From Candidatus Komeilibacteria bacterium (GTDB taxonomy: Bacteria; Patescibacteriota; Patescibacteriia; UBA1558; UBA10009): 64,000 nucleotides of DNA. Numbering within the stretch: position 1 is the stretch's first letter; the number at the start of each line of letters is the position of its first letter. Under the pieces are notes generated by a model that was given only the letters and a program-made list of their open reading frames with translations, was not told the DNA's origin and did not search any database. Shown one piece after another: positions 59,301 through 61,246 of this stretch. Made by a program: the position numbers and the translations under genes. Where the stretch lies: contig JAPLWM010000007.1 in assembly GCA_026396575.1 (NCBI GenBank), positions 76,760 to 140,759 of the forward strand, given 5' to 3'.

Positions 59301-60977
59301 AACGCTACCGTCATATGTCTTATTTGCGTCGGTAGTGAAAGAAATAATGAGAAGCTTTGGAGTAATGTTTGCACTAGTCTCCGCTGTCGTCACACCATTT
59401 AGAGTATAATTTCCTGCGTCGGTGCCACCGGTAATAGAGATGCCTGTAACATGAACGGGTTTGCTATTATCAACATCTTTTGTCTCAAATGCCGCCGTAT
59501 ATCCAAGCGTTAGCTCATCATTCTCAACTCTATTATCCGAAAAATTAACAGTGGCATCAGTTGTCGCATCATAAACTTTTTCTATGCCGGTTGCTGATAC
59601 GGTAAGAGTTCTCTGCGTAATCTCAAATGTTCCCGGAATAAGTGTTAAGGAGTAGTTATCAAGACCATCAGTTAAAGTGCCAATCTCATACTGATAGGTA
59701 TTGACATCTTCACCCTCTTCACGACTTAGTGCTCCAGTAAATCCATCATTGCCAATTAAAACAGGGTTAAAAGTATATTCGAAAGTTGGGTCAGCATTGC
59801 CGTAGACCTTGGTCTGTCCAGTGGTCGGAGTGACGGTAATTTCTAACGGGGTAATATCAGCCGTTCCTGTTGCAGTTCCGTTATAAGTGTAATTTTCAAA
59901 GTTATTGCCGCTAAAAGTAAGCCCTATTGCTGTAACCGTTTTACTTGTACCAACATTCGCATCAGCAAAGGTGGCGGAACCGCCAGAGAGAGTAAGAACG
60001 TCAGAAAAAGCCGCTCCAACAGGAGTTGGACTCGTGAATGTAGCAGAATTACTACCATCATAGATCTTATTATCAGCCGTAATAGTGGCAGTGAGAGTTT
60101 TCGGAGTAATATCAAACGAATCACTTGTAGCGCTTGCGAGAGTTGTTGCAGCCGCTGTTAACTGTTTTTCGCCAATTGCGTTTACTGCCAAATCGCTAAA
60201 AGTTGCTGTTCCTGCCCCGATATTAAGTAAAGCCGTGCCCAATAAATCACCGCTTCCATTGAGGGTAAGTGTAACCGCTTCGTCTGCGCCGAGTCCGTTC
60301 GTGGAATCATTGCCGAATTGGTCTTGGGTTTTTACTACTGGCTGCGAACTTAATTCCGAGCCGTATACTGCACCGTCCGGCTGTGTTGTAAAGGCAAGCT
60401 GCGCAACTGTGCCTGGCACGGTAGATAGCGTTCCAAAATTTGTATTTTCATCAACTCCGGCAATTCCCGCTCCTGAATAAGTCATATTGTCGGTTGAAGG
60501 GGTGGTGCCGGTTGGTCTGATTTTAAGATTGCTAAAACCTATAGCACCAACAGAAGTTGATTTGGCGGTTACTTCAAAAGAGAAAGTTGTTAAACCAGGT
60601 GTAATGCTGGTAGAACTAAAAGTTATATCGTTGTAAGATTGAATCGTAATCGTTGTACTGGTATCAAACTCCCAACCAGCAGGCAAAGTAATTGTATGCG
60701 TACCGATGGCGATGTCTCCATTTTCAGTGCCAAAACTGGGGCCTCTCAATGTTCTATAAGCTCCGCTTCCTCCCAAAGCAGATGTTGTATCAATAGAGAT
60801 ACCAGTTCCATCGTTTGCATGATTAACAGTTGCCGCAGCCATTGCCGGTGAAACGGCAACAAAAAAACCGCTAACTATTAAAATCGCGGCTAAACTAATT
60901 AAAAAAACTTTGACCTTTATAGCGCTACTATACGCAGAGAGAGAGAGAGAGAGAGAGAGAGAGAGAGAGTTTCTCAT
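56367..60977 (-). CDS. Giant (1536 aa) secreted adhesin-like protein with many MBG (YGX-type) repeats, a C-terminal Ig-like domain, and an N-terminal (SL)n repeat
   Basis: Signal peptide. The repeating unit carries KVYGxxDPxLTYxxxGxxxGDxLxGxLxRxxGExVGxYxI...NYxIxF. Near the C-terminus there is TPPTVLSYTPS...TYTITLAGVTDLSGN. Confidence 0.8.
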   Translation of the reverse strand: MRNSLSLSLSLSLSAYSSAIKVKVFLISLAAILIVSGFFVAVSPAMAAATVNHANDGTGISIDTTSALGGSGAYRTLRGPSFGTENGDIAIGTHTITLPAGWEFDTSTTITIQSYNDITFSSTSITPGLTTFSFEVTAKSTSVGAIGFSNLKIRPTGTTPSTDNMTYSGAGIAGVDENTNFGTLSTVPGTVAQLAFTTQPDGAVYGSELSSQPVVKTQDQFGNDSTNGLGADEAVTLTLNGSGDLLGTALLNIGAGTATFSDLAVNAIGEKQLTAAATTLASATSDSFDITPKTLTATITADNKIYDGSNSATFTSPTPVGAAFSDVLTLSGGSATFADANVGTSKTVTAIGLTFSGNNFENYTYNGTATGTADITPLEITVTPTTGQTKVYGNADPTFEYTFNPVLIGNDGFTGALSREEGEDVNTYQYEIGTLTDGLDNYSLTLIPGTFEITQRTLTVSATGIEKVYDATTDATVNFSDNRVENDELTLGYTAAFETKDVDNSKPVHVTGISITGGTDAGNYTLNGVTTAETSANITPKLLIISFTTDANKTYDGSVDANVIGHTLDGVIPEENVDVAGGSATFADKNVGSDKTVTAIGFTLTGADKNNYEIGTINTTTGNINPRPIVVTAVTDSKTYDGTQNSDETPAITSDSSPAIVGDDEANFIQTYDDKNVGENKTLTPSGIVNDNNDGNNYSYSFITDTTGEITKAPLTITADNQSKVYGTANPDLTAKYDGFVGGDTSADLDTLVSLSTLANETSPVDTYEITASDAVDANYNITFTPGILTVTPAPITITVDAKSKVYGEDDTELTYQITSSSLVNGDTLTGSLSRAAGENVGAYAITSTLTNSNYNITFIGADFTITAKPITVTAATNSKTYDGTMSATAIPTFPDGSLIGTDTANFIETYDDKNVGENKILTPRGVVIDGNNGNNYSYTFNDTTGVITRVTLTITADDQSKVYGTANPNLTASYVGFMGEDTSTDLNTPASLSTSADETSPVSTYEITVSGATAANYDIAFASGTLTVRPAPITITADTQTKVYGDDDPLLTYQITSGSLVNEDTLIGSLSRAAGENVGAYAITSTLTNSNYDITFVGADFTITAKPITVTADDSQTKVYGEADPIFAYTFNPALIGLDSFTGVLSRIAGENVGNYAYEIGTLTAGSNYSLNLDSDTFAITQKPITITADAKTKSYGTPDPDLTYQITSGELIEGDLISGSLTRDVGEDLGSYTINQGTVTAGDNYAVTYISGTLTILDTTPPTVLSYTPSINALNISPTTPIIITFSEAVNVENGNVSFSPTISGGFTITNSGTNVVTITPSNPLANNTTYTITLAGVTDLSGNALPTYSNIKFTTATTYSINLNANASGWNLISLPVIPSNTAIAAVLGNAADNIDAVWSYDPTNPNAVGGWLVYVPGNPSGTNNLDRMTTGFGYWLSVTDNANLYGSGTLLIAGPTPPPSRSLQTGWNLIGYYQLPGEANSTPINAFASLQSWSGLWGFNNTTGIFNSVTTINPGDGFWISLTSDKIYTPSN
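57641..59068 (-). repeat. Two near-identical 714-bp tandem copies inside the giant adhesin gene
   Basis: The block starting ccgtaactgtgattggctttgcagtgatcgtgaaatcagcacc at 57641 recurs at 58355 with few mismatches. Confidence 0.7.
60936..60969 (-). repeat. (AG)17 on the plus strand, i.e. (CT)17 in the coding strand. It encodes the N-terminal SLSLSLSLSLS of the giant adhesin and is a candidate slipped-strand phase-variation tract
   Basis: Perfect 34-nt dinucleotide run beginning 6 nt after the ATG (codons 3-14). Confidence 0.8.
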
Positions 60978-61246
60978 ATTTTTTACTAGGTATGACCCTT
61001 AATTATTAGACCCTTATAATATATATAAAACTGATAATTTTTGATGTTGGACCCAATAAATTGCCTTGATTTTTTAGTCAATAATTACCCTACCATATAG
61101 CGATTTTCTTGTCAAGTTCTCTTAAAAATCACATTCCCTTTTAAGGGGTAAAAATCTTTTCTTTTAAAGCAACATTCAAGGTTATCATGCTATAAAAATA
61201 TTGTCAAGGCGGGCGGGCAAGTGTGAAAAATTATTTTAAGTTATAA

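Follow-up and report, generated by a model that had tools for sequence, protein, structure and literature searches.

Phase variation at simple-sequence repeats (SSRs) is textbook knowledge for pathogens adapted to a host, among them Neisseria, Haemophilus, Helicobacter, Campylobacter and the mycoplasmas. In Helicobacter pylori, hopZ, sabA, sabB and babB are, in addition to oipA, genes with CT repeats at their 5' ends. The closest documented mechanism for the locus described here is that of oipA itself, in which CT repeats at the 5' end, within the part coding for the signal peptide, drive switching through slipped-strand mispairing (PMC10564699). We analyzed a stretch of 64,000 nucleotides (nt) from contig JAPLWM010000007.1 of a Candidatus Komeilibacteria bacterium, called the window in the following, in which a perfect (CT)17 tract lies directly behind the start codon of a gene whose product is a giant, secreted surface protein of 1536 amino acids (aa) and a putative adhesin. 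We consider it likely that this tract is a hypermutable SSR which acts as a translational ON/OFF contingency locus for the protein. The original prediction, made from the letters of the window alone, had proposed such a phase-variation switch, and the proposal is supported both by a check of the possible start codons and by differences in tract length and reading frame among related loci.

The locus works like oipA without being a member of that gene family. In both cases a surface or adhesin gene has a CT repeat at its 5' end, within the part coding for the signal peptide, changes in the number of units shift the frame and lead to an early stop, the repeat is present in several paralogues, and ON and OFF alleles occur among strains or relatives. 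The encoded proteins differ: Hop proteins are outer-membrane beta-barrels, whereas the window protein is made up of immunoglobulin-like (Ig-like), MBG and YDG domains and shows no sequence or fold kinship to them. It had no Hop-related Pfam match, and a fold search gave no Hop beta-barrel either. The window tract is also longer (17 units) and starts at codon 3, and its bearer is an uncultivated groundwater bacterium instead of a pathogen, for which switching is predicted from the sequence.

The opa (protein II) genes of Neisseria, for which PMC11032452 cites Murphy et al. 1989, reportedly carry CTCTT pentamer repeats in the signal-peptide-coding region. They reportedly share with the window locus a pyrimidine-rich coding repeat in the leader peptide of a multi-copy adhesin family and translational ON/OFF control by slipped-strand mispairing, each paralogue switching independently. 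Unlike the window tract, the opa repeat is a pentamer and not a dimer, the proteins are reportedly small beta-barrels, and switching rates are said to have been measured in culture. In Campylobacter jejuni poly-G/C contingency loci are found in surface-structure genes (PMC4965091, PMC8437040). Its G tracts of 8–10 within reading frames of an AT-rich genome resemble the G8 and G9 runs that we found in relatives of the window gene; in contrast, the window tract itself is a dinucleotide repeat, and Campylobacter targets mainly glycan-modifying enzymes, not giant adhesins.

The elements of the locus are given below, one per line, with the evidence for each in brackets.

56367..60977, minus strand: gene of the secreted surface protein, 1536 aa (translation, Pfam, NCBI MCX6785614.1, predicted structure)
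60978..61246, minus strand: AT-rich intergenic region of 270 nt upstream of the adhesin start, presumed promoter and leader
60975..60977, minus strand: ATG start codon, 5 nt upstream of the tract (open reading frame (ORF), start scan, NCBI start, homologue N-termini)
60936..60969, minus strand: perfect (CT)17, proposed slippage-prone switch (sequence, run count, codon statistics)
60928..60930, minus strand: TAG stop, read at -1 or +2 units, product MRN(SL)nCV and stop (simulation and sequence)
60917..60919, minus strand: TAA stop, read at +1 or -2 units, product ...LRIVAL and stop (simulation and sequence)
60840..60917, minus strand: signal-peptide core, residues 21–46 (translation, motif conserved in homologues, AlphaFold model)

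On the plus strand positions 60936–60969 are a perfect (AG)17 run of 34 nt with 100% matches, which corresponds to (CT)17 on the coding minus strand. The tract begins with the third base of codon 3 and ends with codon 14 of the adhesin ORF, and the N-terminus encoded across it is MRN-SLSLSLSLSLS-AYSSAIKVKV, i.e. MRN(SL)5S followed by AYSSAIKVKV. The perfect 34-nt AG/CT run that had been noticed right after the ATG, encoding MRN-(SL)n, is thus borne out by sequence and translation. An uninterrupted repeat within an ORF or at its 5' end that has enough units to be hypermutable, about 5–6 or more in the case of a dinucleotide, is one mark of a contingency locus, and the 17 units in codons 3–14 are of this kind. 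In the whole window we counted 1128 dinucleotide runs of 2 units, 43 of 3, 5 of 4 and one of 17, the (CT)17 tract being the sole run of more than 4 units; the count of (AG)17 expected from the dinucleotide composition is about 3e-20. In the window genes CTC makes up 2.2% of the Leu codons and TCT 12.6% of the Ser codons, and the probability that all 11 tract codons are TCT or CTC, as calculated from this usage, is about 2e-14. Since the tract is written solely in these otherwise avoided codons, it is maintained as DNA and not as a peptide motif.

The product MCX6785614.1 from the NCBI annotation of the Candidatus Komeilibacteria metagenome-assembled genome (MAG), 'MBG domain-containing protein', encoded on a contig of 147,964 nt, is identical over all 1536 aa and uses the same ATG. 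Pfam matches above the gathering scores were obtained for MBG_2 (386 bits, 7 stretches), YDG (181 bits, 5 stretches) and Big_5 (68 bits), and by profile match the protein is a member of the MBG/YDG-domain giant surface proteins (PF18676, PF18657). Two N-terminal Ig-like beta-sandwich domains are followed by five YDG and seven MBG_2 domains, by Big_5 and by a C-terminal region to which no domain was assigned. In the signal peptide a KVK n-region is followed by the hydrophobic stretch FLISLAAILIVSGFFVAV and by an AMA/A cleavage-type motif (the slash denotes the cleavage site), and its motif SGFF...A-x-A/AATV is conserved among homologues. In the AlphaFold model residues 21–36 form a helix, while residues 1–21 are disordered. 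Based on the signal peptide with its A-x-A site, the Ig-like domains and the MBG_2/YDG/Big_5 repeats the product is predicted to be surface-exposed. A fold search with the N-terminal domains returned only generic Ig-like or FN3 sandwiches with TM scores of about 0.2–0.3, and a ligand can therefore not be deduced from these domains. The gene also contains two long, nearly identical internal blocks (…ITADNQSKVYGTANP…ITAKPITVTA…), which are probable sites of recombination or length variation and probably break short-k assemblies.

We rebuilt the gene in silico with 10 to 24 CT units and translated each version. Full-length protein was obtained only for n = 11, 14, 17, 20 and 23 (n mod 3 = 2), and both shifted frames reach a stop 2 or 5 codons past the tract. 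This agrees with the original prediction, according to which one unit more or less shifts the frame while three units do not. Between the tract and the signal-peptide core the body frame contained no ATG, GTG or TTG at n = 15, 16, 17, 18 or 19. Near-cognate ATA and ATT codons are the sole possible starts that the main frame has to offer on the way from the tract to the hydrophobic core, and the ATG at 60975–60977 is the only canonical start able to feed the signal peptide. A search for alternative in-frame starts downstream of the tract had been suggested as a check, and its outcome favors a switch. Homologues have Mx(N)-type N-termini and n-regions of 20–30 residues in common ahead of the conserved signal-peptide motif. 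Shine-Dalgarno sites are mostly missing in the genes of the window, and because their lack is the rule, the missing site says nothing against ATG 60977. Given the shared N-termini and n-regions of the homologues, the identical NCBI start and the uninformative lack of a Shine-Dalgarno site, we regard the upstream ATG as the genuine start.

According to the proposed mechanism slipped-strand mispairing at replication would add or remove CT units. With n = 17 (or 14, 20 etc.) the signal peptide and the 1536-aa body would be read in the frame of ATG 60977. If n was off by 1 or 2, translation would run into the TAG or TAA 2–5 codons past the tract and yield only a peptide of 15–20 residues, and at these OFF lengths no restart of translation would be possible upstream of the signal peptide. 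Changes by three units would alter only the length of (SL)n in the n-region of the signal peptide. Such switching might pay as a form of bet-hedging, either in attachment to hosts or in exposure to phages and predators.

For comparison with related loci a family was defined by the N-terminal 293 residues of the adhesin, which comprise the conserved two-domain Ig-like N-terminus. We obtained 76 related loci, 6 from species-representative genomes, which did not include the window's own MAG, and 70 from metagenomes; two more were added via protein look-ups. In a first scan of 449 kb all dinucleotide runs of at least 6 units were CT/TC, and five out of six were located between the start codon and the signal-peptide core. 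The CT tracts are the following.

L025: (CT)12, ON, ATG frame full length
L045: (TC)11, ON, ATG frame full length
L024: (CT)7, OFF, ATG frame reads MNHQNKTVKVNSLSLS and stop
L027: (TC)8, OFF, ATG frame reads MNNKNKTLKISSLSLSLKR and stop
L047: (CT)8, OFF, ATG frame reads MKNTLYKNSSLSLSRRR and stop
L091: (CT)5, ON

Hence CT tracts of 7–12 units occur in the leaders of relatives, two of them in frame and three out of frame. Each of the three OFF alleles is 1–2 units short of or past an ON length, has no start codon in the body frame and retains the conserved MN.QNK-type N-terminus in the ATG frame. After the tract the body frame continues uninterrupted for at least 1625 codons in L024 and at least 1635 in L027, which argues that these two genes are not decayed pseudogenes. 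Stops in both alternative frames right after the tract are common to the tract-bearing members. When comparing L047 (OFF) with L051 (ON), we found 124 identical upstream bases and a tract differing by 4 nt; L024, L025 and L030 are about 93% identical in the upstream DNA, the tract having 7 units, 12 units and being deleted, respectively. A further protein search, for which a profile of the leader was used, added only P0064 (five CT units, ON) and P0070 (poly-G, OFF). P0008, with the N-terminus ...NSLSLSLVKDN, was not traceable to DNA. CT tracts at the same site therefore vary in length and frame while the OFF genes are otherwise intact, and this comparison, too, speaks for a switch.

In the pairs L047/L051 and L024/L025 the leader and upstream DNA are 93–100% identical and the gene bodies about 70–78%, which suggests that a 5' cassette may be exchanged or conserved among diverged adhesin genes. 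Six diverged members have an element of about 110 nt (…CAGATTGCCAC…AATGGTTTGGCTGATTTGGGTG.GGTCG.ATACGCCTAAACCA.CCAAACTATT…) directly upstream of the start codon, at L015 5875–5985, L045 3820–3935, L076 480–590, L091 150–245, L029 1880–1990 and L066 1900–2020. It is far better conserved than the gene bodies and may represent a shared promoter/5' untranslated region (UTR) cassette or an RNA element; it was not evident upstream of the adhesin gene of the window.

A second repeat type, poly-G runs of G8–G9, is present in the same signal-peptide leader of other members, in AT-rich DNA of the candidate phyla radiation (CPR, Patescibacteria). These runs and one in a gene body are listed next.

L033 group (L033, L035–L038): G9, about 3993–4001 in L033, ATT-T-G9 read as MKNIIWGGALKGK, ON
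L026: G9, 3970–3978, ON
L049: G9, 3970–3978, ON
L019: G8, 6024–6031, in the hydrophobic core
L050: G8, 3938–3945, in the hydrophobic core
L090 (Azambacteria MAG GCA_030651055.1): G9, 1424–1432, without the preceding T, OFF, one base out of frame
Gene body, L067: G9, 894–902; against G8 in L032 (894–901), L034 (4391–4398) and L052 (4391–4398)

L041 has a leader identical to that of the L033 group, including G9, and diverges in the downstream sequence. In L090 the ATG frame reads MKKIIGGGR followed by a stop; for P0070, the gene annotated there, a GTG within the hydrophobic core had to serve as the start. Over 1585 nt L067 is 99.87% identical to L032 and L034; apart from one mismatch the sequences differ by a single gap, G9 versus G8. 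The G9 allele of L067, located in the gene body, truncates the protein at residue 162, whereas the G8 alleles are intact, and G8 was reproduced in three samples against G9 in the fourth. On the evidence of these contigs we regard the case as a near-clonal ON/OFF polymorphism in a family member, caused by poly-G in the gene body.

We then determined how repeats are distributed over 61 non-redundant loci (355 kb). Although the 170-nt leader zone from the start codon to the signal-peptide cleavage site represents only 2.9% of the DNA, twelve of the 15 runs of (CT)≥5 or G/C≥8 fall into it (binomial P = 1.5e-16). Of the three remaining runs two are located in a gene body. The tract device, (CT)n or poly-G, recurs in the leader of about one fifth of the family members, which belong to groundwater CPR bacteria.

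The population of the window was also seen in other assemblies. Look-ups with the neighboring genes found it in at least 12 Logan runs per side (ERR153021xx-22xx, SRR2069865x). All Logan contigs coming from the upstream AbiEii gene end 26–29 nt into the CT tract, and all contigs from the downstream side start at 57667, 3.3 kb into the adhesin gene, presumably due to its internal repeats. In four independent Logan assemblies the same upstream flank is followed by 26–29 nt of CT up to the contig end. The differing end points could have hinted at shorter alleles, but we dismissed them as uninterpretable in view of their odd lengths, the k-mer graph and further CT loci of the metagenome. Joint Genome Institute (JGI) metagenomes, scanned for exact copies of the tract with its downstream flank, gave 0 matches, and look-ups of the exact product (1536 aa, or 1491 aa from M46) in the contig index gave no match.

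The best surviving alternative, although an improbable one, is a neutral microsatellite: the tract would be a mutational by-product of a Ser/Leu-rich, pyrimidine-rich leader in a genome with weak repair, it would vary in length and at times inactivate the gene without being kept as a switch, and the OFF alleles would be fresh pseudogenes that do not revert. S/L/F-rich leaders of tract-free homologues, written in CT-rich codons (e.g. L015, TCGTCTTTCTCTAG), could indeed seed such repeats. The leaders of the six loci from species-representative genomes are devoid of CT or poly-G tracts except for G8 in L019, and the long CT tract is consequently lineage-specific. Frameshifts outside SSRs exist in the family as well: L038 has a 1-nt deletion at about 2003 outside any repeat, where it should be considered that a metagenome consensus can carry errors, and L076 lacks the ATG. 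Besides the lineage specificity and the L038 deletion, which also count against the proposed switch, three further points weigh in the same direction. The ON/OFF contrasts are mostly between diverged paralogues or orthologues with about 70–78% body identity and not between clones. The window tract is represented by a single full assembly with 17 units, the 90% protein cluster of MCX6785614.1 having one member; the Logan breaks indicate a long tract in all those samples and neither show nor exclude heterogeneity, since a k=31 de Bruijn graph must break at a dinucleotide tract of about 31 nt or more and is therefore silent on this question. Finally, a high slippage rate, reversibility and selection or an adaptive value in this population are what we infer. 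Neutral origin would nevertheless have to account for the convergence of two unrelated repeats, CT and poly-G, on one zone of 170 nt (P about 1e-16), given that no more than two such runs were found in the bodies, which extend over several kb and are rich in Gly, Ser and Thr. It would also have to account for OFF genes that are intact over more than 1600 codons and for stops in both alternative frames after the tract that are conserved among the tract-bearing members. Moreover, 17 perfect units are hard to keep without recurrent slippage or selection.

In L076 (572–600) the conserved ATG is replaced, the sequence being …ATTCACAATCAC… compared to …ATTATGAATCAC… in L091. The lesions in L038 and L076 are either real pseudogenes or contig errors.

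We think it very unlikely that the tract is untranslated, with a start located downstream or at a non-canonical ATA or ATT and the CT run acting in the 5' UTR or promoter on transcription or on the stability of the mRNA, e.g. via H-DNA. A 34-bp homopurine-homopyrimidine mirror repeat can form triplex DNA. In-frame ATA and ATT codons are available between the tract and the hydrophobic core, and no clear promoter or Shine-Dalgarno site was found: a promoter and terminator scan upstream of the adhesin gene performed no better than on shuffled sequence and revealed no convincing sigma-70 consensus, and an Rfam scan of 60700–61400 gave no credible match. This possibility is opposed by the fact that no ATG, GTG or TTG is on offer, by the Mx(N) motif and the codons preceding the tract, which homologues conserve as protein, and by ON alleles that are always in frame with the upstream ATG. 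The NCBI start is identical, and the missing Shine-Dalgarno site merely follows the rule in this genome.

Even less probable is an artifact, in which the tract or the frame states of the relatives would stem from assembly or sequencing errors in low-complexity DNA. Poly-G runs are known to cause trouble with some Illumina chemistries. Repeats of this sort are difficult for short-read assemblers, the Logan contigs do break there, and several relatives are low-coverage contigs. Yet the start of the tract with an identical flank recurs in at least four independent assemblies and in the NCBI MAG, from which we conclude that the tract is not an assembly artifact. CT tracts were furthermore found in contigs of several projects and assemblers, and the body G8 comes from three samples against G9 from a fourth. 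Transcriptional slippage and programmed frameshifting, for which dinucleotide tracts are not typical sites, were set aside as nothing supported them.

Returning to the contingency-locus interpretation, we tend to believe that groundwater CPR bacteria (Komeilibacteria, Azambacteria and relatives) run a genuine phase-variable gene set, in which the giant Ig-like/MBG/YDG family has repeatedly evolved (CT)n or poly-G in the leader. A life attached to host cells is generally assumed for CPR bacteria, and it raises the question of how a host is chosen, held and released. Diversity-generating retroelements (DGRs) act on surface proteins of CPR and DPANN organisms. Like the proposed switch they offer ultra-small episymbionts a route to vary surface or attachment proteins fast; they differ in that a reverse transcriptase rewrites a variable region, whereas the adhesin switch would control presence or absence of the protein without such machinery. 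If true, our interpretation would mean stochastic ON/OFF control of attachment proteins in obligate episymbionts and the first contingency-locus set described in CPR, in a non-pathogen and in an oligotrophic setting. If this family of giant adhesins is switchable, even such tiny genomes would be seen to invest in bet-hedging over the display of surface proteins, and the family would become a foremost candidate for contact with hosts or for phage and predator recognition. There are practical consequences, too: automatic annotation will report such genes as truncated or with a wrong start, as seen for L090/P0070, and short-k assemblers will break contigs at such tracts.

In a full-text literature search no paper was found that connects CPR or Patescibacteria with phase variation, contingency loci, hypermutable tracts or SSRs, in agreement with the original prediction, which knew of no such report. 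One Saccharibacteria paper mentions phase variation, merely as an analogy for phage resistance of the host. The mechanism as such is well known; what appears to have gone unreported is its occurrence in CPR, on a family of giant adhesin-like proteins in which CT and poly-G tracts have converged.

The genes surrounding the adhesin gene and a further cluster of the window are as follows.

55253..56362, minus strand: downstream secreted protein with a peptidoglycan-binding domain, 369 aa from TTG 56362 (ORF, Pfam)
61247–62181, minus strand: AbiEii-family nucleotidyltransferase toxin, 235 aa, overlapping a 93-aa DUF6922 ORF, directly upstream of the adhesin gene
62208–63566: secreted CAP/TSP3-repeat protein, further upstream
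49907–53577, minus strand: form III RuBisCO (MCX6785609.1), adenosine monophosphate (AMP)/thymidine phosphorylase-like protein (MCX6785608.1) and IF-2B-family isomerase

The next gene had been placed 4 nt downstream of the adhesin gene. This distance applies if TTG 56362 is used, but not with the NCBI start at ATG 56341 (362 aa), which lies 25 nt past the adhesin stop. The gene for the peptidoglycan-binding protein is probably co-transcribed with the adhesin gene. Judging from the operon-like spacing (4 or 25 nt) it might also be co-switched, which would need polarity or translational coupling. The AbiEii and DUF6922 pair looks like a type IV toxin-antitoxin system, and the cluster at 49907–53577 is typical of the CPR/archaeal AMP salvage pathway.

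Among the starts of about 37 ORFs in the window almost none has a Shine-Dalgarno-like sequence, the upstream DNA being A/T-rich, and several ORFs have TATAAT-like boxes 10–25 nt from the ATG. This suggests that mRNAs of the window are leaderless or have a short leader. Short perfect or near-perfect tandem repeats are also present at 15327–15356, 18732–18766 and 47856–47888, with units of 8 nt (AAATCAAA, 3.8 copies; AATCAAGA, 4.4 copies) and 14 nt (AAAGCTTAAAGCTC, 2.4 copies).

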